Positions 2,264-30,210 of a DNA stretch of 31,843 nt are shown here, in pieces. The DNA comes from an uncultured Gammaproteobacteria bacterium. Its GTDB lineage: Bacteria > Patescibacteriota > Patescibacteriia > UBA2591 > UBA6264. Every line of letters starts with the position of its first letter. The first letter of the stretch is position 1. The position numbers were made by a program, and so were the translations under genes. Where the stretch lies: positions 1-31,843 of the forward strand of contig CAZDOL010000007.1 of NCBI GenBank assembly GCA_964507075.1. The letters are read 5' to 3'. Below the pieces are notes generated by a model. That model worked only from the letters and a program-made list of their open reading frames with translations. It made no database searches and was not told the origin of the DNA.

Positions 2264-3373
2264 TTATAGTTTGGAGTCAGTAATCATACTTCTAATGTCT
2301 TTCATTAGGTCTAGGTAAAAAGCAAGGTTGTGAATCGTTGCTAATGTTTTACCTAATTGTTCTTTTGCCATAAATAAATGCCTAATATATGCTCTGGAAA
2401 AATTCTGACAAGCATAACAAGAACAATTTGAATCTAATGGTTTAAAATCATTTTTATACTTAGCGTTAGTTATATGTATTTTCTTATAAAAATTTGTTGA
2501 TAACCGACCCGACGGGTCAATTTTGTTAGACCTTGTGTACAATAAACCGTGACGAGCGTTACGAGTTGGAATTACGCAATCAAACATATCAACTCCCATT
2601 TTAACTGCCTCAACAATCTGTTCTGGTTTACCAGCACCCATCAAATAACGAGGTTTGTTCAATGGCAATTCTTGAATAGCAGATTGAATCGCCCCATATG
2701 TTTCTTTAATAGGTTCTCCCAATGTTAGTCCTCCAATAGCATATCCATTGAAGCCAATTTTAATAAGTTCTTTCGCGCTTTTGGCACGTAAATCTTTATA
2801 AACTGAACCCTGAACAATGCCGAAAAGCATCCTATTAATATTTTGCCTTTTATGGGCATTTTTACAAAGCTTTGCCCAAGCAGACGTCCTATCCACTGCT
2901 TTTTGCGTTTCAATTTTGGTGCAAGGCCACTTAACACATTCGTCCAAACACATTATTATATCTGACCCTAAAACATTTTGAATTTTGATAGCTTGAGCTG
3001 GTGATAGAAAAATACTTTTGCCATCAATTTCTGATTGAAATTCTACACCCTTATCACTAACCTTTCGTTTTTTAGATAGAGAAAATACTTGATAACCACC
3101 ACTATCTGTTAATATGGGACCTTTCCAACCCATAAAATTATGCAGTCCCTTGGCTTTCTTAATGGTGTTAAGTCCTGGACGTAAGAATAAATGATATGTA
3201 TTAGAAAGGAGAATTTGAGCACCCAAATTTTTTATTTGGGAAATAGTTAATCCCTTCACCGTAGCTTGAGTGGCAATAGGCATAAAAAACGGGGTATTTA
3301 TAATCCCATGTTTTGTTTTTAGCTTCCCTGAACGCGCTTGAGAAATATTAGATTTTTTGATTAACTTAAACAT
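2264..3373 (-). CDS. tgt: Queuine tRNA-ribosyltransferase (tRNA-guanine transglycosylase)
   Basis: 369 aa; TPFFMPIATQATVKG, LLSNTYHL, LTDSGGYQVFSL, the Zn site CSCYAC..H and the MFDCVIPTRNARHG motif. Confidence 0.92.
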   Translation of the reverse strand: MFKLIKKSNISQARSGKLKTKHGIINTPFFMPIATQATVKGLTISQIKNLGAQILLSNTYHLFLRPGLNTIKKAKGLHNFMGWKGPILTDSGGYQVFSLSKKRKVSDKGVEFQSEIDGKSIFLSPAQAIKIQNVLGSDIIMCLDECVKWPCTKIETQKAVDRTSAWAKLCKNAHKRQNINRMLFGIVQGSVYKDLRAKSAKELIKIGFNGYAIGGLTLGEPIKETYGAIQSAIQELPLNKPRYLMGAGKPEQIVEAVKMGVDMFDCVIPTRNARHGLLYTRSNKIDPSGRLSTNFYKKIHITNAKYKNDFKPLDSNCSCYACQNFSRAYIRHLFMAKEQLGKTLATIHNLAFYLDLMKDIRSMITDSKL

Positions 3374-3468
3374 ATATGTTAGTTAATTGGGTACATAGGG
3401 ATTGGTTAATTAGGATTTATTAAAATATTTTTTACCCGATTGCCCGAGCACCCATGTACCTGATCACC
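3374..3468 (-). repeat. Intergenic arm/leader module (copy 1, upstream of tgt)
   Basis: Read on the minus strand: GGGTGATCAGGTACATGGGTGCTCGGGCAATCGGGTAAAAAATATTTTAATAAATCCTAATTAACCAATCCCTATGTACCCAATTAACTAACATAT-ATG. A G-rich arm is followed by an A/T stretch and a nearly G-free leader. Confidence 0.6.
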
Positions 3469-4189
3469 CAACCTGCCACTTTAAAAATTGATTAACTAAT
3501 TCCCATATTTTCAAAAATTCTTGTTTTTTGATACTAAATTTTTCTAAATAACTAAAATCTTTATAAAGAAAAATTCGTAGAATTTGTAAACAATCTAAAC
3601 TAATTTCCATTCTATCGCCGTTTAAAACTGGAGGTAATTTATGTTGAGAGCAAATAATGCTTCCTTTGTTTAAATCAAAAAAGACTTGCTTTGTGGAAGG
3701 ACTTTTCTGGCAAATTGAACAATGCTTTAGTTCAGGACAATAACCAGAGAAAGCCAAAAGTTTAATTAAAAAAGCAGCCGATAGAGGCAACGCTTTTTTT
3801 ATGGGCAACCTATCTATATGGCGTAAAAATTCTAGAATTAAAGCCAAAATCTTCTCATCAGTTTTTTGAAATTTAAGCAATTCATCAACTTTCTTCAAAA
3901 TGTTATTAAGCAATAGAATCTTCTGATAATCCTTAATCAATCCTTCAAATTTTTCCTGAGTTTTTCCATCAATCAAACGATAGAAATTCTTTCCTTTAAT
4001 TACAACTAAATCTAAAAAAGAAAAACGGGCGGAGATTATAGGATTTAATTTACTACTAATCTTGCGAGCTCCTCGCACCAAAACTTCAACCTTGCCCTTC
4101 TCTTGACTATAAAATGTTATAAATTTATCATTCTCCTTGACGTTTCGCTCTCCAAGAATAACTCCTAATAGATGATTCGAAATAGGCAT
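3464..4189 (-). CDS. recO: DNA repair protein RecO
   Basis: 241 aa with an N-terminal OB-fold-like region and a Cys cluster (CPELKHCSIC ... CSQH) typical of RecO. Confidence 0.8.
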   Translation of the reverse strand: MPISNHLLGVILGERNVKENDKFITFYSQEKGKVEVLVRGARKISSKLNPIISARFSFLDLVVIKGKNFYRLIDGKTQEKFEGLIKDYQKILLLNNILKKVDELLKFQKTDEKILALILEFLRHIDRLPIKKALPLSAAFLIKLLAFSGYCPELKHCSICQKSPSTKQVFFDLNKGSIICSQHKLPPVLNGDRMEISLDCLQILRIFLYKDFSYLEKFSIKKQEFLKIWELVNQFLKWQVG

Positions 4190-4214: not shown

Positions 4215-7154
4215 TTATTGACTCAGTGTTAAAATAATATTAATTCCATTTAGGGAAACCTCTTCTTGAATCAAAACCTTGCCTGGCGGTCCTTTGATTA
4301 TAATGTCTTTACTGCCTGTTTGAGATTTCAAAAATTCTTTTTTATTTTGAATCATCTTTTCTAAACCTTCCTTGGTTTCAGAACAATAAAGATTAACTAA
4401 ATCATCTTTTGTTAGTTGGGCTTTTTTGCGTAGAGAATTTACTGCCCTAACCAATTCCCGACAATTTCCCTCTTCTTTTAAAACAGGAGTTATCTCTGTA
4501 TTTAAATATATTTCTATATCTCCTTCTTTTATCTTCTCCCAATTATCTCCTTGGGGGAAATTTTCAATGGATTCAACTTCTTTGATATTTAATTCATCTT
4601 TAATCAACTCTATTAAATCAATTGGGAGTCTGACTCCTAAAACATTTAATTTACTTAAAGGTTGACGGACTTTTATTTTTGTTTGTGCCCTTAGGTTATG
4701 TCCTAATTCGCAAATCTTTCTGACTATTCGCATTTCAGATAACAATTTCTCATCAATTAAGCTTTCGTCAAATAATGGCCAACTTTGCAAATGAACAGAT
4801 TCTTGTTTTCCATCCACCTCTTGATATATATATTCAGCTAAAAATGGCATAAAGGGAGCCATTGTCCTACTTAGATGAAACAAGGTTCTCCTTAATGTTT
4901 TTAAAGCTTTTATTTTATCGTCCTGACCACCATCTCTAAATCTATTTCTTGACCTTCTAATATACCATGCAGATAAATCGTTAATAAAAATTGGTATCTC
5001 CCTAACTGCATTTAAGTCATAACTATCCATTTTCTGGGTAACACTTTTAACCAATAGATTAAGCCTACTTGTAATCCATTTATCAAGAACATTAGTGATG
5101 TCTTTATCTTTGTCTACATTTTCCACTTTAATATCTCCTCTAAACATTTGATAAAAGGTGTGAACATTTATCAAAGTAAGAAAAAATCTATATTGTTCTT
5201 TTAAATCTTTCTCTGAAAAACTCAAATCTTCAGCCTTCATTGCTGCCGAACTAGACAAATAGTACCTCATTGCATCAGCTCCATATTTTTCCATTATTTC
5301 CATAGGGTCTGGATAATTATCCAAATGCTTTGACATTTTCTTCCCATCTTCTGCCAAAACCATCCCATTAGCTACAACATTTTTGAAACAATTAGTTTTT
5401 TTAAGAGCAGTCGCCAAAACATGAAGATAATAGAACCATGTTCTTGCCTGGTCAACTCCTTCCGCAATAAATTGAGCTGGAAAATTCTTTTCAAACTTTT
5501 CTTTATTTTCAAATGGATAATGCATCTGAGCATAGGGCATTGAACCTGACTCAAACCAACAATCCAAAACATCCGGAATTCTTCTCATTATTCCATCGCA
5601 CTTCTCGCATTTAAAAGTAATCTTGTCTACAAAATGTTTATGCAAATCATCAATTTTTTCTCCAGAAACCTTTTCTAACCCTTGAACTGAACCAAAAACT
5701 CTTTTTTCCTCACATTTATCACAAACCCAAAGAGGTATAACAGAACCCCAAAATCTTTGTCTGGAAATTGACCAATCTCTAGCCCCTTCTAACCACTTGC
5801 CGAACCTGCCGTTTTTGATGTGACCAGGAATCCAATTGATTTCTTTAGCTGTTTCTATTGCCTGTTCCTTGATTTTAATTACATTAACAAACAAAGAAGA
5901 AGTGGCATAATTTAGTAAGGGTGAACCGCAACGCCAACAATGAGGATAAGAATGTTCGTATTCTTCTTTACTAAACAAAAAATTTTTCTCTTCTAAATAT
6001 TTAATTATTTTTTTGTCTGTTTGTTGAGAATCCTGTTTTGGCCGCACCTCTTGGCCTTTAAAATCTATAACATCATCGGTAAAATGTCCGTCCATCTTAA
6101 CGTGTTGGATAAATGGCAATTGTTTCTCATTTCCCAAACTCATATCATCTTCTCCAAAAGCGGGGGCAATATGAACAATGCCAGTGCCATCTTCTCCTGT
6201 AACAAAATCAGCTAATTGAATGGTGTATAAATTTTCTTTATTTTCTATATCTTTTTTGGAGTAGTAATTAAATAATGGTTTGTATTTTTTGCCTTCCAAT
6301 TCTTTGAAATTAACTTCTTTCAAAACCTTATACTTCCTGTATTTAAACACACTTTCTAAATTCCCTTCAATACATATAAACTTTTCTTTTCCTGATTCAA
6401 CCAAAACATATTTTAAATTTTCTCCCAAAGCTAAAGCAACATTGCCCGGCAAGGTCCATGGAGTGGTTGTCCAAGCTAACATATAAGTTCCTGGTTCGTC
6501 CTCTAACTCAAATTTTACAGTTACAGCTAAATCTTTAACATCTAAATATCCTTGACTTACTTCTGATTGAGAAAGGGTTGTTTCGCATCTTGGGCAAATA
6601 TGCATTGATTTATAACTTTCATAAATTAATCCTTTGTCCCACAATTCTTTAAATACCCACCAGATACTTTCCATATAATCTTTGTCCATTGTCTTGTAAT
6701 CATTATCCATATCCACCCAACGGCCAAAACGATGAATAATTTTTCTCCATTCTTCTGCATACACAAGAACTTTGCTCCGACAGGTTTCATTAAACTTATG
6801 AATACCCAATTCTTCAATCTGTTTTTTATTTTTTATTTTCATCTCTTCTTCAACAATATTCTCAACTGGTAAACCATGACAATCCCATCCCCATTTTCTT
6901 TCAACATGATATCCTTTCATTGTCCAATAACGAGGAACAATATCTTTCATTAAACCAGCGACCAAATGTCCATAATGAGGAGTGCCAGTAGCAAAAGGAG
7001 GGCCATCATAAAAAACAAAATCCTTGTCCGCCGTAGCTTTAGCGAAGGAGGAGCCCTGAGGAGATTTTTTTCTCAAAGATTTTTCAAAAGTCTTGTCTTT
7101 ATCCCAAAACTTTAATATTTCTTTTTCTTTTTCGGCAAAATTAAATTGAGGCAT
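4215..7154 (-). CDS. ileS: Isoleucyl-tRNA synthetase (type 2, eukaryote-like)
   Basis: 979 aa; PPFATGTPHYGH (HIGH), KMSKHL (KMSKS), CP1 editing region and Zn-finger cysteines. Confidence 0.95.
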   Translation of the reverse strand: MPQFNFAEKEKEILKFWDKDKTFEKSLRKKSPQGSSFAKATADKDFVFYDGPPFATGTPHYGHLVAGLMKDIVPRYWTMKGYHVERKWGWDCHGLPVENIVEEEMKIKNKKQIEELGIHKFNETCRSKVLVYAEEWRKIIHRFGRWVDMDNDYKTMDKDYMESIWWVFKELWDKGLIYESYKSMHICPRCETTLSQSEVSQGYLDVKDLAVTVKFELEDEPGTYMLAWTTTPWTLPGNVALALGENLKYVLVESGKEKFICIEGNLESVFKYRKYKVLKEVNFKELEGKKYKPLFNYYSKKDIENKENLYTIQLADFVTGEDGTGIVHIAPAFGEDDMSLGNEKQLPFIQHVKMDGHFTDDVIDFKGQEVRPKQDSQQTDKKIIKYLEEKNFLFSKEEYEHSYPHCWRCGSPLLNYATSSLFVNVIKIKEQAIETAKEINWIPGHIKNGRFGKWLEGARDWSISRQRFWGSVIPLWVCDKCEEKRVFGSVQGLEKVSGEKIDDLHKHFVDKITFKCEKCDGIMRRIPDVLDCWFESGSMPYAQMHYPFENKEKFEKNFPAQFIAEGVDQARTWFYYLHVLATALKKTNCFKNVVANGMVLAEDGKKMSKHLDNYPDPMEIMEKYGADAMRYYLSSSAAMKAEDLSFSEKDLKEQYRFFLTLINVHTFYQMFRGDIKVENVDKDKDITNVLDKWITSRLNLLVKSVTQKMDSYDLNAVREIPIFINDLSAWYIRRSRNRFRDGGQDDKIKALKTLRRTLFHLSRTMAPFMPFLAEYIYQEVDGKQESVHLQSWPLFDESLIDEKLLSEMRIVRKICELGHNLRAQTKIKVRQPLSKLNVLGVRLPIDLIELIKDELNIKEVESIENFPQGDNWEKIKEGDIEIYLNTEITPVLKEEGNCRELVRAVNSLRKKAQLTKDDLVNLYCSETKEGLEKMIQNKKEFLKSQTGSKDIIIKGPPGKVLIQEEVSLNGINIILTLSQ
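7027..7052 (-). repeat. GC-rich hairpin repeat (minimal form) embedded in-frame in ileS
   Basis: TCCGCCGTAGCTTTAGCGAAGGAGGA is 25/26 identical, by my manual comparison, to the intergenic copy at 16363-16388. It encodes GSSFAKATA just before the conserved FVFYDGPPFATG block. Confidence 0.7.
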
Positions 7155-11501: not shown

Positions 11502-11792
11502 TCAAATCTTGTCCAATTCTCGTTTCAAAATTTTCAAACACTTAGTACAAATTTTTATCTTAGTTTTATTCTTGTTTTCCACATTTATTCTCTCAGACGG
11601 ACTTGCTTTTTTTGTCAAACACTTTTTAATAATCCTATCATCCTTAAGAAGATTTTTTAAAGGGTTATTGGAACCAGATATATTTTTAGTTTGCAAATTC
11701 ACATACTGGCGTCTCTTGGTCGCTATATTAGAATGTGATCTGATAATAGCTGTCTGGGGCCCACGGCCACAAATATCACAACGTCTTGACAT
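11502..11792 (-). CDS. rpmB: Ribosomal protein L28, extended form
   Basis: MSRRCDICGRGPQTAIIRSHSNIATKRRQYVNLQ is canonical L28. A long Lys/Asn-rich insertion precedes KICTKCLK. Confidence 0.85.
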   Translation of the reverse strand: MSRRCDICGRGPQTAIIRSHSNIATKRRQYVNLQTKNISGSNNPLKNLLKDDRIIKKCLTKKASPSERINVENKNKTKIKICTKCLKILKRELDKI

Positions 11793-11869
11793 AAGAATTG
11801 GTTAATTGGTTAATTGGGGATTGGTTAATTGGGATCCTAATTACCTAAGTACCCAATTACCTAAGTACC
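11793..11869 (-). repeat. Intergenic arm/leader module (copy 2, upstream of rpmB)
   Basis: Minus strand: GGTACTTAGGTAATTGGGTACTTAGGTAATTAGGATCCCAATTAACCAATCCCCAATTAACCAATTAACCAATTCTTAT-ATG. The G arm is a tandem 17-nt unit. The last 42 nt before the ATG contain no G. Confidence 0.65.
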
Positions 11870-11902
11870 TATCATAACATTTTAAATTTATTTAACAAGT
11901 GT

Positions 11903-12530: not shown

Positions 12531-12559
12531 TTGACATTTTTTAAAAAATAAAGTAAAAT
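12531..12559 (+). promoter_or_regulatory. Strong sigma70-like promoter of the rpsL-rpsG-fusA operon
   Basis: TTGACA (12531-12536), 17-nt spacer, TAAAAT (12554-12559). Confidence 0.55.
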
Positions 12560-12565
12560 AAGTTA

Positions 12566-12682
12566 GGTGCTCGGGTACTTGGGTAATCAGGCAAAAAATT
12601 ATTCTTATAATGAACGAAACGAAAGATGTTTCTTCTAAAATCCCAATTACCTAATTAACTAATCCCCAATTAACCAATATGT
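12566..12682 (+). repeat. Intergenic arm/leader module (copy 3, upstream of rpsL)
   Basis: GGTGCTCGGGTACTTGGGTAATCAGGC is followed by A-rich sequence with TATAAT (12606-12611). TCCCAATTACCTAATTAACTAATCCCCAATTAACCAATATGT-ATG follows. Positions 12629-12680 contain no G. Confidence 0.65.
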
Positions 12683-13108
12683 ATGCCTACCATAAATCAA
12701 TTAGTCCGTAAAGGAAGAAAAAAAACGAAAAAAAAATCTCAAACCCCTGCCCTCAGGGTTAATTTTAATGTTTTGAAAAGAAAAAGAACTTTCCTTAAAA
12801 AGGGTCGTCCATTTTTAAGAGGAATTTGTCTGAAGGTTACTACCCAAACTCCCAAAAAGCCAAATTCAGCTTTACGTAAAATTGCTAGAGTTAGGTTATC
12901 TAACGGCATGGAAGTAACTGCCTACATTCCTGGAATTGGACACAACCTGCAAGAACATTCCGTAGTTCTAATTAGAGGCGGCAGAGTAAAAGATTTGCCC
13001 GGCGTTAGATATCATATTGTTAGGGGGGTCTACGACACTAGTGGTGTTGAGGGTAGAAAACAAAGCAGAAGTTTATACGGTACAAAAAAACCAAAGTCAG
13101 GCGCTTAA
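12683..13108 (+). CDS. rpsL: Ribosomal protein S12
   Basis: 141 aa; [17 protein letters not shown] and [25 protein letters not shown]. Carries a ~14-residue basic insertion near the N-terminus. Confidence 0.95.
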
Positions 13109-13159
13109 GTAATCGGATAATTATAATCCCGATTAACTAATCAATCAATCAACTAACTT
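13109..13159 (+). repeat. Intergenic arm/leader module (short copy 4, upstream of rpsG)
   Basis: GTAATCGGATAATTATAATCCCGATTAACTAATCAATCAATCAACTAACTT-ATG, with TATAAT at 13122-13127. Confidence 0.5.
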
Positions 13160-13633
13160 ATGAGAGGAAAACAAGCCATAAAAAGAAAAATCAGTCCAGA
13201 TCCTAAATACCAATCAATTCCTGTAGCCAAATTCATCAATCATATTATGAAAGGTGGTAAAAAAAATATTGCTTCTAAAATAGTTTATCAATCTTTTGAT
13301 TTTATTAAAGAAAAAACCAAAAGAGACCCTTTGGAAATTTTTCAAAAAGCAATAGAAAATATATCTCCATTTATAGAGATAAGATCTCGCCGAGTTGGTG
13401 GAGCTAATTACCAAGTTCCTACCCCAACCACCGAATCCCGTAGATATGTTCTTGCTTCCCGTTGGATTATTGATGCTGCCCGCAAACGTAAAGGAAAGCC
13501 AATGTTCAAAAGATTGGGACAAGAATTTCTAGACGCAGCAGAAAATCAAGGCAACGCTATAAAAAAGAAAGAGGATGTCCATCGTATGGCCGAGGCAAAT
13601 AAAGCTTTCGCTCATTTTGCTAGATATCATTAA
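13160..13633 (+). CDS. rpsG: Ribosomal protein S7
   Basis: 157 aa; KFINHIMKGGKK, RRVGGANYQVP and AHRMAEANKAFAHF-type C-terminus. Confidence 0.95.
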   Translation: MRGKQAIKRKISPDPKYQSIPVAKFINHIMKGGKKNIASKIVYQSFDFIKEKTKRDPLEIFQKAIENISPFIEIRSRRVGGANYQVPTPTTESRRYVLASRWIIDAARKRKGKPMFKRLGQEFLDAAENQGNAIKKKEDVHRMAEANKAFAHFARYH

Positions 13634-13683: not shown

Positions 13684-13707
13684 TTCTCCTCTTTACTAAG
13701 GGGAGAA
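13684..13707 (+). other. Stable intercistronic hairpin between rpsG and fusA
   Basis: TTCTCCTCTT-TACT-AAGGGGAGAA is a 10-bp stem with one G-U pair. No T-tract follows, so a processing or stability element is likelier than a terminator. Confidence 0.45.
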
Positions 13708-15846: not shown

Positions 15847-15874
15847 TTGACATTCTGATTAAAAACTGTATCCT
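15847..15874 (+). promoter_or_regulatory. Candidate promoter of ssrA
   Basis: TTGACA (15847-15852) directly after the fusA stop, 16-nt spacer, TATCCT (15869-15874). It would leave a short precursor leader before GGGG at 15888. Confidence 0.35.
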
Positions 15875-15887
15875 TAATGTGTTATAA

Positions 15888-16273
15888 GGGGATGTCTTAT
15901 AATCGACGCGAGAAAATTGCGACGAAAACAAGCCTTTCGTACACCTTAGAGACGCGTTAGTTCTCTAAAACAAAATAAATGGCAAACTAATTGCTAAAGT
16001 AAGGCAAATGCTAAGCATTCCAGCCTTCAATTTTGCTAGAGCTTAAAAAAGCAACAGCCATCAAATTTTTGAATCCTGCTAAAAAATTTGATGTATTATC
16101 AGCGGGAAAACGACCAATCTGTCGCCCGAATAGAATGGTTGTATTAAATCGGGCTGTGATTAAAGGAATTTGTTCAATTTTAATCTTTAATCAAGAAATC
16201 AATTGAACTATAAAGGTAGAAATTTTTGTCTTAATTCCTGCGAACGCGGGGGAAGTACCCGCCATCTCCACCA
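15888..16273 (+). ncRNA. ssrA: tmRNA (SsrA), one-piece
   Basis: 5' GGGGATG pairs with 3' CATCTCC (G3-U70), followed by ACCA. The TCGACG motif sits near the 5' end, and the T-arm is GCGGG/CCCGC. An internal frame (at most 15981-16046) ends ...CCA GCC TTC AAT TTT GCT AGA GCT TAA (PAFNFARA*). The stop lies in a GCTT-AAAA-AAGC hairpin. 386 nt. Confidence 0.85.
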
Positions 16274-16402: not shown

Positions 16403-16651
16403 ATGCATTATGTTTACATTCTCCAAGGCACCAAAAACAATAGTCCATATACGGGAATTACAACTAACCTAAAACAAAGAATCAAGAATCACAACTCTGG
16501 ACAAGTCAAATCTACCTCAAGTAAAAAACCGTACAAATTAATTTGGTATTGCGCATTTGCTAGTAAAATTAATGCGTATAAATTTGAAAAGTATCTTAAA
16601 AGTGGATCGGGGGTGGCTTTCTCTAAAAAACATTTAAATTTAAAAAATTGA
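16403..16651 (+). CDS. Small GIY-YIG family nuclease
   Basis: 82 aa; YVYIL...YTGITTNLKQRIKNHNSG...KLIWY...A.KFEKYLK matches the GIY-YIG core (GIY ... YIG ... R ... H/N ... E). Confidence 0.8.
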   Translation: MHYVYILQGTKNNSPYTGITTNLKQRIKNHNSGQVKSTSSKKPYKLIWYCAFASKINAYKFEKYLKSGSGVAFSKKHLNLKN

Positions 16652-17156: not shown

Positions 17157-17339
17157 ATGAACAAACCTTGTAAGGCAATATCCAAAAGGGTAAAAAAAAC
17201 CAAAAATGAAAAATTTTTGCACATAACTTGTGGGCAAAACCATTTTAACGCGAAAGAATCAAGGCAAGTAACTAAAAATAAAAGAAAACGAAGATTGCTT
17301 AGCAAGGGTTTCAGAAAAACACTTAAACAAAATCTGTAG
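17157..17339 (+). CDS. rpmI: Ribosomal protein L35
   Basis: 60 aa, very basic, in the conserved infC-rpmI-rplT position; K..SKRVKKTKN...H pattern. Confidence 0.8.
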   Translation: MNKPCKAISKRVKKTKNEKFLHITCGQNHFNAKESRQVTKNKRKRRLLSKGFRKTLKQNL

Positions 17340-17434
17340 ATTGGGTAATCGGGTGCCTGGGTACTTAGGTAATCAGGATCTATGTATTATAATCCCAATC
17401 CCCAATTAACCAATTACCTAATCAACTAACACAT
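17340..17434 (+). repeat. Intergenic arm/leader module (copy 5, between rpmI and rplT)
   Basis: ATTGGGTAATCGGGTGCCTGGGTACTTAGGTAATCAGGATCTATGTAT-TATAAT(17388-17393)-CCCAATCCCCAATTAACCAATTACCTAATCAACTAACACAT-ATG. Positions 17394-17434 contain no G. Confidence 0.7.
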
Positions 17435-17779
17435 ATGCCAAGAGTTAAAAGAGGAAAAGCTCATCTCAAAAAAAGAAGAAAACTGCTAAAAGCAGTCAAG
17501 GGCTATCGTGGGGGACGAAAAAGTAAAATAAAGTTAGCAAAAACTGCTGTTAAAAAGGCTGGTGTTTATGCTTATCGCGATCGCCGAAACAAAAAAAGAA
17601 CCATGAGACGACTCTGGCAAATTAAAATCAATGCTGCTTGTCGGGGAAACAAATCAACATACTCTAAATTTATTGCTGGTTTAAAGAAAAATAAGATTGA
17701 AATAGACCGCAAAATCTTAGCTCAACTTGCAGAACATTATCCAGAAATCTTCATCAAAATCTCTGAAATGGTTCGGTAG
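17435..17779 (+). CDS. rplT: Ribosomal protein L20
   Basis: 114 aa; MPRVKRG, KGYRGGR, YAYRDRRNKKR..R.LWI.RINAA. Confidence 0.95.
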   Translation: MPRVKRGKAHLKKRRKLLKAVKGYRGGRKSKIKLAKTAVKKAGVYAYRDRRNKKRTMRRLWQIKINAACRGNKSTYSKFIAGLKKNKIEIDRKILAQLAEHYPEIFIKISEMVR

Positions 17780-17846
17780 ATCAATTGGTTAGATCATCTG
17801 CCTGTCACGCAGAAGGTTGCGGGTTCGAGTCCCGTCCGGACCGCCA
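17770..17846 (+). tRNA. tRNA-Asp (anticodon GUC), CCA encoded; 5' end overlaps the rplT 3' end
   Basis: GGTTCGG TA GATC AATTGGTTA GATC A TCTGC CTGTCAC GCAGA AGGTT GCGGG TTCGAGT CCCGT CCGGACC G CCA. Confidence 0.92.
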
Positions 17847-19929: not shown

Positions 19930-19976
19930 ATTGAGGAACCGAGTTCCTCAATATTAACCGAGTTCCTCAATATTAA
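19927..19976. repeat. 13-bp-stem palindrome plus tandem 19-nt direct repeat at the tRNA-Arg 3' flank
   Basis: AATATTGAGGAAC-CGA-GTTCCTCAATATT (19927-19955). ACCGAGTTCCTCAATATTA occurs twice in tandem (19938-19956 and 19957-19975). Confidence 0.75.
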
Positions 19977-19978
19977 AA

Positions 19979-20050
19979 TACCCCTACCAGGAATCGAACC
20001 TGGGTCTTATCCTCCGCAAGGATACACTCTATCCATTGAGCTACAGGGGC
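19979..20050 (-). tRNA. tRNA-Arg (anticodon read as GCG), no encoded CCA
   Basis: Minus strand GCCCCTG TA GCTC AATGGATA GAGT G TATCC TTGCGGA GGATA AGAC CCAGG TTCGATT CCTGG TAGGGGT A. G-U pairs at 1-72 and 7-66; 4-nt variable loop. Confidence 0.8.
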
Positions 20051-20166
20051 ACAACTTCGCTTTGATTTACATCAAAGCTACGATGCGCAAGTAGACGCTT
20101 TAATATTGATGCTTGTCCTTCCGGAGCTCAAATGCAAATTTGAGCGCAGGAGGAAGCTACAGGGGC
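20051..20166. repeat. 104-nt double-hairpin insert flanked by a 12-nt direct repeat of the tRNA-Arg 5' end
   Basis: AGCTACAGGGGC occurs at 20039-20050 (tRNA positions 1-12) and again at 20155-20166. The 104 nt between hold two inverted units of the CCTTCGC...GCTWCGG family. Their apical hairpins are CTTTGAT-TTAC-ATCAAAG and GCTCAAAT-GCAA-ATTTGAGC. Confidence 0.7.
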
Positions 20167-25537: not shown

Positions 25538-26554
25538 TTATACAGTGTATCTATTTAAGTGCTTTGGATTATGGGGATTAAAAATTTCGAAATATCTTTT
25601 CACATTCGCAATACTATCAATTCGCACATCCCTCTCTCGCGCTAACCTTGGTTTTATTCCATTGCTTTCAAGAATACTAAACACAGAATGACGAAGTGGT
25701 TTAGAAAAACTTGTAAAAGCTAATTTTTTATACTTATAAAACTTTCCGTTTACTTTATATTTGTGTGTAAAAACAGATCCGTCAGTATCAATAAGGCCAC
25801 GAACGCAAGCAATTGAATATAATTTATCCTGCTTAACCCAGTCTGGGATATCTATTTGTTGTTTTATTTTATTGCCCTGCTTAAGTCCAAGCTTGTCAAC
25901 ACAAAAACGAATTAGTTCAATTCGTGAAATAATAAAACTCACTGACAGTTCCTTCTTTCTATAATACGCACCGACAGGAACATCAAACAGCTTTTTTATC
26001 AAAGCAACAATAAATCTAGAATACTCTTCGTCATCAAAACGATGAAGGGTAATGTTTAGTTGATACTTAGATATCCCACCGTCTCCCAACATAATTCCAA
26101 CGAATTCAGCGAGATCTTGTGAAAAACGTGGCCTCTTAATTGGCTTGGACACTCCAATAATAGAATGTGTCTTATATTTTCCTGTATTCTCCCACCACTC
26201 ATGCCATTTCTTTTTCCGATATTTTGGGTCTCCTCCAATATGGCCATATTTTTTATATACTGCAACACCTCCCGCATGAGCACCCTTATAAACATACCAA
26301 AAAGGATTCTTGATTTCAACATTTTTTGGCATTTTTATCGTTGCCAATCTACAAATCTTTTTTATTGCCACCAAAGACATTGAATATTTTTCTCTCTTCC
26401 AATCATTAAGCGTTCTTTTGTGTATTTTTATTTCATCTGCAAACGAGAGCCACTGGATACCCAACTTTTTTTTTGCCATTAATAAAAATTGCTGCTGTTT
26501 ACCAGAAGGAAAAATAACTCTTTTATTACCTTTCTCTATTAACGACTTTACCAT
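25538..26554 (-). CDS. Free-standing double-motif LAGLIDADG homing endonuclease with an N-terminal HTH-like domain
   Basis: 338 aa; two LAGLIDADG motifs (LAEFVGIMLGDGGI and ACVRGLIDTDGSV). Not visibly inside an intron or intein. Confidence 0.8.
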   Translation of the reverse strand: MVKSLIEKGNKRVIFPSGKQQQFLLMAKKKLGIQWLSFADEIKIHKRTLNDWKREKYSMSLVAIKKICRLATIKMPKNVEIKNPFWYVYKGAHAGGVAVYKKYGHIGGDPKYRKKKWHEWWENTGKYKTHSIIGVSKPIKRPRFSQDLAEFVGIMLGDGGISKYQLNITLHRFDDEEYSRFIVALIKKLFDVPVGAYYRKKELSVSFIISRIELIRFCVDKLGLKQGNKIKQQIDIPDWVKQDKLYSIACVRGLIDTDGSVFTHKYKVNGKFYKYKKLAFTSFSKPLRHSVFSILESNGIKPRLARERDVRIDSIANVKRYFEIFNPHNPKHLNRYTV

Positions 26555-28842: not shown

Positions 28843-30177
28843 CTACGAATTCTTCTCTAACTCTAATACTGCTTCCTTTAGGTTTCTGACTGGAAGGATT
28901 TTCTTCTTATCAAAAAATTTCGTATCTAATGGACAAATTATTTTAGTAAGTCCCATCTTTAAACACTCTCGTATTCTTTTCTCTGGAAAAGCAACGCTCC
29001 TGATTTCCCCAGCTAACCCAACCTCCCCAAAAACAGCATAATCCCGTCCAATGGGCCTGTTCTTGAAGGCAGAAATTATAGCCAAAGAAACTCCTAAATC
29101 AATGGCCGGTTCTTTAACTCTCAAACCACCAGCAATATTAATATGAATATCTTGATTGCTTAAGTTCAATTTAATCCTTTTGATTAAAACTGCAGTCAGA
29201 AGACTTAAACGATTTAAGTCAAAACCACTACTCTTTCTCTGAGGATGACCAAAATTAGTTCTGGAAACTAAGGCCTGAACTTCAACCAAAAAAGACCTGC
29301 GACCCTCAATAATAGAAGTTATAATTGATCCACTGGTTTCTGAATTGCGATTTGCTAAAAAAATTTCTGAAGGATTCTTTACCTCTATTAATCCTTTTTC
29401 TTTCATGTCAAAAACGCCAATTTCTTGGGTTGAGCCGAAACGATTTTTGGCTGCCCTTAAAAAACGAAAATGCTGATTAGCATCACCATCAAGATAAAGA
29501 ACAACATCAACCAAATGTTCCAATGTTTTTGGCCCAGCTACTGAGCCTTCTTTTGTTACTTGTCCTATAATTAGAACAACTGATTTAGTGGCTATAGCCA
29601 CTTCTCTTAATTTGGAGACAACAACACGAATTTGATTAACGCTTCCGGCCACCGAAGGCAAAAGATGAGATGAAACAGTTTGAATAGAATCAACAACAAC
29701 TAAGCGAGGTTTATTTTTTTTAATTGTGGAAACAATAACATCAATATCTGTTTCACCCAAAAATCTTAAATTAGTGGTTTTGACTCCTAAACGTTTAATC
29801 CTGGAATGAACCTGCAAAACCGACTCTTCGCCACTAATATAGAAAACTGAATGGTCAGAAAACTGGCCAGCAACCTGAAGGGCTAATGTTGATTTACCAA
29901 TTCCTGGCTGGCCCCCTAATAAAATTAAAGAAGAAGGAACCATGCCTTCTCCAAGAACTCTGTCTATTTCTTCTATTTTTGTTTTTAATTTTACAAAAAT
30001 TTGATTTTCTGGTTGGTTAAATTTTATTAAACCATCTTTGCCAGAAATCTTTTTATTTTTTTCAACTAAATTAGCCGAGCTTTGCTCGGCAATTAATCCC
30101 CATGCACCACATTCTGGGCATTGTCCCAACCATTTAGGGAACTGACTACCACATTTTGAACAAATAAATACACTCAT
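28843..30177 (-). CDS. radA: DNA repair protein RadA/Sms
   Basis: 444 aa; N-terminal Zn ribbon CSKCG...CPECGAW, GGQPGIGKST, KNRFG and a Lon-like C-terminal domain. Confidence 0.93.
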   Translation of the reverse strand: MSVFICSKCGSQFPKWLGQCPECGAWGLIAEQSSANLVEKNKKISGKDGLIKFNQPENQIFVKLKTKIEEIDRVLGEGMVPSSLILLGGQPGIGKSTLALQVAGQFSDHSVFYISGEESVLQVHSRIKRLGVKTTNLRFLGETDIDVIVSTIKKNKPRLVVVDSIQTVSSHLLPSVAGSVNQIRVVVSKLREVAIATKSVVLIIGQVTKEGSVAGPKTLEHLVDVVLYLDGDANQHFRFLRAAKNRFGSTQEIGVFDMKEKGLIEVKNPSEIFLANRNSETSGSIITSIIEGRRSFLVEVQALVSRTNFGHPQRKSSGFDLNRLSLLTAVLIKRIKLNLSNQDIHINIAGGLRVKEPAIDLGVSLAIISAFKNRPIGRDYAVFGEVGLAGEIRSVAFPEKRIRECLKMGLTKIICPLDTKFFDKKKILPVRNLKEAVLELEKNS

Positions 30178-30210
30178 CCGTTAATTGTTGATTGTTGATT
30201 GTTGGAATTG
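30178..30210 (-). repeat. Short G-poor leader (copy 6, upstream of radA)
   Basis: Minus strand CAATTCCAACAATCAACAATCAACAATTAACGG-ATG, with a tandem CAACAAT/CAATCAA periodicity. Confidence 0.45.

Follow-up and report, generated by a model that had tools for sequence, protein, structure and literature searches.

The REP/REPIN, ERIC and Correia elements are multi-copy imperfect palindromes of transcribed intergenic DNA; they are lineage-specific and can alter the stability or processing of messenger RNA (mRNA). Unstructured A/U-rich or CA-rich leaders act as translational enhancers, and initiation independent of a Shine-Dalgarno (SD) sequence occurs in Bacteroidota. In Escherichia coli, translation of rplT is coupled to that of rpmI via mRNA structure. 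The STRR (short tandemly repeated repetitive) elements of cyanobacteria are 7-bp units that lie between genes and form hairpins, for which roles in transcript stability or translational coupling were proposed (PMC2670836). Here we describe an octamer-based repeat module in a contig of an uncultured member of the Patescibacteriota (CAZDOL010000007.1, assembly GCA_964507075.1) and compare it with these systems. The whole stretch analysed, hereafter the window, comprises 31,843 nt with a GC content of 33%, and the module was examined above all in the spacer between rpmI and rplT.

The module is real and more than a product of chance: it is a lineage-specific hairpin leader cassette made of short tandem repeats (STRs), with 8-nt units in phase. 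Four full copies of one common build occur in the window, before tgt, rpmB, rpsL and rplT. Each begins with a G/U-rich arm of three to five phased units RGGYRNTY (the G-arm), continues with an A/T spacer of 0-49 nt and ends with a nearly G-free arm of units CYAAYYMM (the C-arm), which reaches position -2 of the ATG and is followed by T at -1. The rplT copy takes up the entire spacer, 17340-17434, from the rpmI stop codon (17337-17339) to the rplT ATG (17435). Allowing at most one mismatch, GGGTAMTYRGG matches the window 21 times against 1.6 expected, a number reached by 0 of 100 shuffles, and CCAATTAAC matches 27 times against 13.4 expected. Tandem Repeats Finder reported period 8 (also 15/16) at 11796-11871 and 12643-12678. 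When three consecutive units in 8-nt phase were required, window G-arms were detected solely at tgt, rpmB, rpsL and rplT, each with a phased C-arm behind it that runs to the ATG; the same scan found no G-arm inside window genes and none in the relatives L094, L096, L225, L227 and L228.

A first-pass annotation of this DNA had listed six copies, always oriented with the downstream gene. The orientation holds, as all four phased G-arms lie on the sense strand of the downstream gene and none within a gene. The gene names it had assigned were all confirmed by Pfam. Of its six copies, those of tgt, rpmB, rpsL and rplT stand; the rpsG spacer, which aligns with an ordinary spacer of the relative L091, is marginal, and the radA leader is a heptamer array and does not belong to the family (Table 1). 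It had also measured G-free runs of 52 nt at rpsL, as we do, and of 41 nt at rplT, where the run extends to 52 nt; that of rpmB is 45 nt. Such a run is not special by itself, because many of at least 30 nt exist in a window of this GC content.

Table 1. Coordinates of the repeat modules, their associated promoters and the downstream genes in the window
Feature	Position	Strand	Sequence and remarks
rplT G-arm	17343-17378	+	GGGTAATC GGGTGCCT GGGTACTT AGGTAATC AGGA, strict 8-nt phase; begins 3 nt past the rpmI stop
rplT A/T loop	17379-17393	+	TCTATGTATTATAAT, 15 nt; TATAAT at 17388-17393; kept in the short L225 orthologue
rplT C-arm	17394-17434	+	41 nt, zero G: CCCAATCC CCAATTAA CCAATTAC CTAATCAA CTAACACA T; abuts ATG 17435
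rpsL promoter	12531-12559	+	TTGACA-17-TAAAAT, 11/12 consensus; ends 5 nt before the G-arm
rpsL G-arm	12565-12592	+	AGGTGCTC GGGTACTT GGGTAATC AGGC; at the predicted transcript 5' end
rpsL A/T spacer	12593-12641	+	49 nt; own small hairpin and TATAAT
rpsL C-arm	12642-12682	+	G-free; shares its AATTACCTAATTAACTAATC stretch with the plain L091 rpsL leader
rpmB promoter	11871-11898	-	TTGTTA-16-TATGAT with TG; directly 5' of the G-arm
rpmB G-arm	11835-11870	-	AGGTACTT AGGTAATT GGGTACTT AGGTAATT AGGA
rpmB C-arm	11793-11834	-	G-free TCCCAATTAACCAATCCCCAATTAACCAATTAACCAATTCTT; no spacer, arms join at GGATCC
tgt G-arm	3434-3475	-	recO stop TGA (3466-3464) inside unit GGGTGATC
tgt A/T spacer	3415-3433	-	AAAAAATATTTTAATAAAT
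tgt C-arm	3374-3414	-	CCCTATGTACCC pairs with GGTACATGGG of the G-arm
rpsG spacer	13108-13159	+	Marginal member: small hairpin ATCGGATAATTATAATCCCGAT and (AATC)n G-free leader, no phased G-arm
radA leader	30178-30210	-	Non-member: (CAACAAT)3.6 heptamer array, unrelated repeat
tgt	2264-3373	-	Pfam
rpmB	11502-11792	-	Pfam
rpsL	12683-13108	+	Pfam
rpsG	13160-13633	+	Pfam
rplT	17435-17779	+	Pfam
radA	28843-30177	-	Pfam

In order to extend the census beyond the window, the genome of the window species was also sampled through contigs walked from both window ends, and we added a metagenome scan with the 18-mer AATCCCCAATTAACYAAT and the ribosomal-operon contig L105 (relatives and extra contigs are labelled with L-numbers). 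About 56 kb of the window-species genome is covered by the copy counts. Most window-species copies were not among the matches listed by the metagenome scan, and counts derived from it are lower bounds. The L20 protein encoded by rplT was found identical in every residue on many ENA, JGI and Logan assembly contigs and in the NCBI single-cell assembly GCA_000405165.1; its closest named homologue, 83% identical, is annotated as 'Patescibacteria group bacterium'. A scan of genome contigs with S12, too conserved a query, gave a best match 74% identical and no locus with the motif.

Full modules of the window species were also found between secY and adk and upstream of a hypothetical gene in a cluster resembling a type IV secretion system (T4SS), and the gene of an M16 peptidase has a leader with the C-arm only. 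Among the matches listed, full modules of sister species stand before rpmB, nusB (after rpmF, Pfam-confirmed) and a PrgI-like gene. This amounts to 6-7 copies per ~56 kb of the window species, all intergenic. Over at least 9-10 independent copies the G-free arm adjoins the ATG in every case and none lies inside a gene; an identical 18-mer is present at three loci or more.

Several features place the module in the transcript. The promoters of rpsL and rpmB both lie upstream of the G-arm. The former is conserved in L091, L094 and L096, relatives without the module there; at the latter, three species share the same 31 nt as far as the -10 box, which itself differs by one base (TATGAT vs TAAGAT). 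In the copies located within operons, the upstream stop codon lies within the first G unit or 0-5 nt before it: a TAG is found inside AATTAGG at the T4SS gene, another overlaps AGGTGCTT at nusB, and stop and G-arm are separated by 3 nt in the rplT copy and by 5 nt in that of adk. Based on these promoters and stops, the whole module is probably part of the mRNA. A terminator scan listed no intrinsic terminator at the rpmB, rpsL and rplT modules, tgt being outside the scanned range.

The composition of the two arms bears on the strand concerned. On the ATG side, the arm in module leaders contains 27% C and 3% G; the G-arm contains C for which the C-arm has no matching G, and reverse-complementing the G-arm units does not yield most of the C-arm units. 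Such a strand asymmetry is what one would expect if selection acted on the sense RNA, and not for a DNA palindrome. As proposed in the first-pass annotation, the arms are able to pair: duplexes computed with RNAduplex between each G-arm and its own C-arm reach -17 to -30 kcal/mol and are more stable than those with shuffled C-arms in 7/8 copies (z -1.6 to -5.1). In the minimum free energy (MFE) folds the last ~7-29 nt, and in most copies the AUG too, are predicted to be unpaired. Between -20 and +13, module genes have a predicted accessibility of 0.46, as compared with 0.49 in 52 module-free genes of the window species, the comparison set used here for both leaders and accessibility (Mann-Whitney p = 0.32). 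Since accessibility equals the genome norm, the cassette would not block initiation.

Gene order is conserved in relatives whose L20 proteins are 92-82% identical. L091 (L20 89% identical; 4-fold degenerate sites 65% identical) keeps the rpmB module, ~90% identical by eye in the alignment and with an extra 20-nt GC palindrome; at rpsL it lacks the G-arm, and its rplT spacer holds another repeat. That palindrome, CCTGCCTRCCGGYAGGCAGG, is nested in both sister-species modules (L091 4811-4830; L149 7813-7832) at different places within them and is absent from the window species; it represents a second, smaller inserted hairpin. In L225 (L20 92%) the rplT copy is short, its G-arm lacking exactly 24 nt (three octamers) and its C-arm 14 nt, with loop and proximal leader conserved. 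L227 has a decayed rpmB G-arm (GG to GA) beside an intact gene, and L094 and L096 have no rpmB G-arm. Within the window species, 5-11 contigs per locus are 100% identical and the repeat number is invariant, so that phase-variable repeat number was rejected. Whole-octamer length changes and decay in relatives argue for gain and loss in place rather than transposition. From this comparison, the arms appear to grow and shrink by whole octamers, i.e., by slippage, and to decay in some relatives.

The part that persists among close relatives is a proximal core, YTAATTAAC-N8-ATG. In 6/9 independent loci, the AAT[TC]A[AC]C nearest to the ATG ends exactly 8 nt before it (P about 0.002), and this spacing is retained in the G-arm-less orthologues of L225 and L227. 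The comparison suggests that the core is older than the arms and has been kept. We consider the proximal core, rather than the G-arm, the best candidate for a functional element.

Our preferred reading, which we hold tentatively, is that of a slippage-driven STR hairpin leader cassette in which the RNA has a modest cis role, providing a 5' or intercistronic stem together with a standard G-free landing pad. The G-arm would start right after the -10 box, or at or inside the upstream stop codon, and the C/A arm would run in register to T(-1)ATG. On the mRNA, the G-arm would fold back onto the distal C-arm, so that the cistron has an imperfect stem-loop at its 5' edge, leaving the last ~7-29 nt, devoid of G, and in most copies the AUG too, as open as ordinary SD-less leaders. 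Such a 5'-terminal or intercistronic stem may buffer mRNA decay or processing, with a modest effect in cis, and may insulate the landing pad for SD-independent initiation. This proposal draws on the phased repeats, the ATG-side G-free arm present in all copies, the upstream promoters and stops, arm pairing beyond composition, the strand asymmetry, the fixed spacing of the core, the ~90% identity (by eye) of the rpmB module set against 65% at 4-fold sites, the 24-nt slippage in L225 and the normal start accessibility. An on/off switch or an operator is not supported.

Various observations weigh against a function of the stem. A cognate arm pairs no better than a non-cognate one (permutation p = 0.65); as any G-arm pairs about equally with any C-arm, there is no copy-specific covariation. 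Folds of whole modules differ from dinucleotide shuffles by z -0.25 to -2.3 only, module windows are not among the most structured of the sense strand in a sliding-window scan, and module energies set against the mean and standard deviation of that scan correspond to about z -1 to -2.2. Transcription start sites were inferred from promoter consensus alone. A close species has no module at its rpsL and rplT orthologues, L094, L096 and L227 have none or a decayed one, and this poor conservation implies that any function is dispensable. The high identity of the rpmB module could be explained by gene conversion between copies. Finally, this genome has many unrelated 7-8 nt STRs in its remaining spacers, an abundance consistent with an origin by mutation alone.

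A neutral origin is nearly as likely as a modest cis role. The module would then be a neutral or selfish by-product with no function of its own: replication slippage and template switching would make tandem repeats of 7-8 nt and quasi-palindromes within the scarce non-coding DNA of a compact genome, gene conversion would spread the words, and selection would merely remove G-rich structure near the start. That arm pairing is generic, predicted accessibility unchanged and turnover by whole octamers fast between close species fits this possibility well, as does the decay of the L227 G-arm next to an intact gene. So do the unrelated STRs. These include the radA array (CAACAAT)3.6 and, on contigs L105 (1317-1389 and 3355-3554), L218 (170-275) and L222 (8784-8861), (ATTTTGC)4 before rplN, (GGAATTT)2 and (GTATCTT)3 before rplF, a telomere-like (AACCCTA)3 and (TTAGAAA)4 before a PrgI-like gene, and a 16-mer doublet, (CATTAGAACATGGGAA)2, upstream of the gene for an AI-2E transporter. 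In reverse complement (GTTCCCATGTTCTAAT), this last repeat also stands in front of rplT in L091 and of a further gene in L218. A neutral origin accounts less readily for the fixed 8-nt register with the ATG in 6/9 loci, for an rpmB module far more similar between species than 4-fold sites are, for the lack of repeat-number polymorphism in 5-11 independent contigs and for the identical 18-mer at three or more loci.

Considerably less probable, in our view, is a conditional mask, in which the G-arm sequesters the leader until it is released by a ribosome terminating upstream (coupling) or bypassed by transcription from an internal -10 box. The upstream stops in or beside the first G unit, several MFE folds with a stem reaching -5 to -12, a TAnnAT hexamer directly 5' of the C-arm in most copies and the rpmI-rplT coupling of E. 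coli would all suit it. To mimic a terminating ribosome, the 15 nt after the upstream stop were forced single-stranded; start accessibility rose in tgt, rplT and the T4SS gene and fell in adk and nusB, and translational coupling by unmasking was rejected on account of these inconsistent shifts. Module genes are no less accessible than the 52 others, which likewise led us to reject masking or exposure of the start site by the module, and the rpsL and rpmB copies have no upstream open reading frame (ORF). The TATAAT that the first-pass annotation had noted between the arms is indeed present at rpsL, rpsG and rplT, and its enrichment is weak by a rough estimate once the composition of A/T-rich spacers is allowed for; two of the three cases look paralogous. 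As a promoter it was discarded, having no usable -35 box and no call in the promoter scan. The switch between read-through and internally initiated transcripts proposed by that annotation is thus unsupported on three computed counts, namely the good promoters upstream of the G-arm, the internal hexamers and the unchanged accessibility. The masking, unmasking and internal-promoter models are all unsupported by our predictions.

The absence of an SD sequence had been described as a property of the modules. It is true of them and equally true of the genome: no SD sequence precedes any window gene (e.g., starts at 1945, 7154, 10473, 13753, 18064 and 26713) or any of the 52 module-free genes, among which the sole GGAGG lies 15 nt before the ORF of a GIY-YIG endonuclease. 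This fits the reported lack of the anti-SD motif in a subgroup of Parcubacteria (PMC9297842). Ordinary leaders (-30 to -1 of the 52 genes) are 82% A+T with 9% G and 9% C, and T occupies position -1 in 41/52. At several genes a -10-like box lies just 6-8 nt before the ATG (recG, 26713; a LAGLIDADG ORF, 26554), which suggests leaderless mRNAs.

Given the lack of SD sequences, the proximal core might be thought to replace them, although we regard this as improbable. The core UAAUUAAC, at -16 to -9 and thus 8 nt upstream of the AUG, would be a substitute ribosome-binding signal that pairs with a remodelled 16S tail or other ribosomal RNA (rRNA), or is recognised by a ribosomal protein; the G-arm, which can expand, would mimic rRNA and titrate the signal, tuning the pairing, so that repeat number sets the translation rate of each gene. 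Its SD-like spacing in 6/9 loci, kept in orthologues without a G-arm, and the missing anti-SD motif in the Parcubacteria subgroup speak for such a signal. A signal of the SD type should also precede most genes, and AATYAMC shows no positional peak upstream of the 52 other genes, for which reason it was rejected as a general ribosome-binding motif. The words TTAA and AATT are enriched in all leaders at no fixed position, and neither the window nor the compared loci contain a 16S rRNA gene against which complementarity could be read. The unstructured C/A-rich enhancer put forward in the first-pass annotation as a replacement for the SD sequence is partly plausible, for the proximal core alone, in an SD-less lineage and with the 8-nt spacing in 6/9 loci; ordinary genes use plain A/T leaders in which the motif has no fixed position.

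An operator shared by translation-apparatus genes, another role considered in the first-pass annotation, does not agree with the distribution of the module. Copies before adk, the M16 peptidase gene, the T4SS-cluster gene and the PrgI-like gene indicate that it is not specific to translation genes; by gene lists, a full module precedes 3/~17 ribosomal protein genes and 3-4/~42 other genes, and a species whose L20 is 89% identical lacks it upstream of both rpsL and rplT. More generally, a binding array for a trans-acting protein (DNA operator or RNA regulator), or a G-quadruplex or hairpin switch formed by the phased GG(G) runs, is the least credible of the explanations considered: the same words recur at many loci, each full window-species G-arm has by inspection at least four GG/GGG runs 8 nt apart (three in the L180 copy) and the tip of the arm reads AAUCRGGA in roughly half the copies, yet the genes concerned have no common function, unit number varies and the array can be lost, the in-operon copies have no promoter to operate on, most copies allow only two-tetrad quadruplexes with loops of 5-6 nt, and no candidate regulator was identified.

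The family offers a concrete, repeat-built 5' leader in fixed register with the start codon, which is directly testable. In the literature searched, no account of gene expression in Parcubacteria lacking the anti-SD motif was found. If the cassette tunes mRNA stability or initiation, its slippage-prone repeats would constitute an evolvable expression dial in ultra-small genomes. For annotators, the case is a caution that recurring 'motifs' of this sort are not operators.

Other features of the window deserve mention. The GIY-YIG endonuclease ORF (16403-16651, +) lies between the gene for transfer-messenger RNA (tmRNA) and infC, overlaps the infC start and is the sole ORF with AAGGAGG in front of it. 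L094, L096, L225 and L227 do not have it at this position, and it is thus probably a recently inserted homing endonuclease. The tmRNA gene (15888-16273, +) has a promoter TTGACA-16-TATCCT at 15847-15874, and infC starts (16648) with TTG in the window species and all relatives. Between rpsG and fusA, a hairpin TTCTCCTCTTTACTAAGGGGAGAA followed by an A/T run (13684-13707, +) is conserved in all relatives examined, which makes it a candidate attenuator or terminator within the str operon. The final 10 nt of rplT also belong to the gene for tRNA-Asp (17770-17846). From there to tRNA-Arg (19978-20051) extend NYN, HTH and M78 (ImmA/IrrE-like) genes, ending in a 19-nt direct repeat of 2.1 units (19937-19976). 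In relatives the same segment holds LAGLIDADG and HEPN genes, RHH and YafQ toxin genes, or a serine recombinase with methyltransferases; by its gene content, segment 17770-19976 appears to be a variable island or integration hot spot. The LAGLIDADG-type ORF (25538-26554, -) beside tRNA-Ser varies in length and presence among contigs of the same population and relatives (L220, L091, L225). The rnc gene, encoding RNase III, is present in the sister species.

None of the known systems matches the module in full. The first-pass annotation did not recognise it as a described ribosomal protein leader, and rightly so: no Rfam match overlaps the modules at the gathering threshold or at E up to 10, and the module also precedes non-ribosomal genes. 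A literature search with the repeat sequence words returned primer matches only. A miniature inverted-repeat transposable element (MITE) was rejected, as the flanks contain neither terminal inverted repeats nor a target-site duplication, and relatives show unit-wise change or spacer replacement with no clean insertion; the occurrence in both orientations and inside genes that the first-pass annotation had named as the mark of a MITE is not seen either. An integron attC site, with its order 5'-RYYYAAC ... GTTRRRY-3' and its place at the 3' end of a mobile cassette, was also dismissed: here the order is inverse (GTTRGGT at the 5' edge in three copies, ...AAC at the 3' side), and the genes on either side are core genes that keep their synteny in every relative.

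With REP/REPIN, ERIC and Correia elements the module has in common that it is multi-copy, lineage-specific and variably present at orthologous loci. It differs in that its arms are not mirror copies, the lattice GGGTAMTY not being the reverse complement of CCAATTAA, and it was excluded from REPIN/REP elements, which require two inverted copies of one sequence of ~20-40 nt. It also changes by whole-unit slippage in place, and sits 5' of genes at the ATG and not 3'; no RAYT or other transposase was seen among the annotated genes of the ~56 kb of window-species DNA.

As in the coupling of E. coli rpmI and rplT through mRNA structure, one module lies between rpmI and rplT and can pair the rpmI stop region with the rplT leader. 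Unlike that structure and ribosomal protein leaders such as the L20 leader, the module is common to genes with no relation to one another, close relatives do not have it in this spacer, and its in silico unmasking is not reproducible. The ATG-proximal leader resembles A/U-rich or CA-rich enhancers in being G-poor and weakly structured in an SD-less organism, but its C-rich sequence is made of repeats and comes with a complementary G-arm, in contrast to the A+T-rich ordinary leaders of this genome.

Among the matches listed, Bacteroidota-like metagenome contigs carry inverted repeats of the same words (GGTTAATTGG.../...CCAATTAACC), including the 18-mer used for the scan. In L117, which we call Bacteroidota-like because it encodes a GldE-like protein, GGTTAATTGGTTAATTGGGGATT... 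and ...AATCCCCAATTAACCAATTAAC (3741-3790 and 4321-4350) flank a 23S_rRNA_IVP (PF05635) gene, and similar inverted repeats occur in L116, L118, L125, L137, L184, L213 and L216. These repeats share with the module the word set and the order of G-arm then C-arm; they differ by near-perfect mirror arms around a variable segment of 60-80 nt or a 23S_rRNA_IVP gene, and by host GC contents of 0.41-0.47. A relationship with the window module is unproven.

The closest analogue is provided by the STRR hairpins of filamentous cyanobacteria, of which the module can be regarded as the octamer counterpart. Like the STRR sequences of heterocystous cyanobacteria, for instance in the hupS-hupL spacer, it consists of short units arranged head to tail, occupies many intergenic spacers within transcription units and has hairpin potential. 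In contrast, its units are of 8 nt rather than 7 and of other sequence (RGGYRNTY/CYAAYYMM), outside the STRR consensus, and its host belongs to the Patescibacteria and not to the cyanobacteria. The module further differs by its two distinct arms, the G-free one always beside the ATG in fixed register. Should it prove neutral, STRR-like repeat dynamics would be documented outside cyanobacteria.

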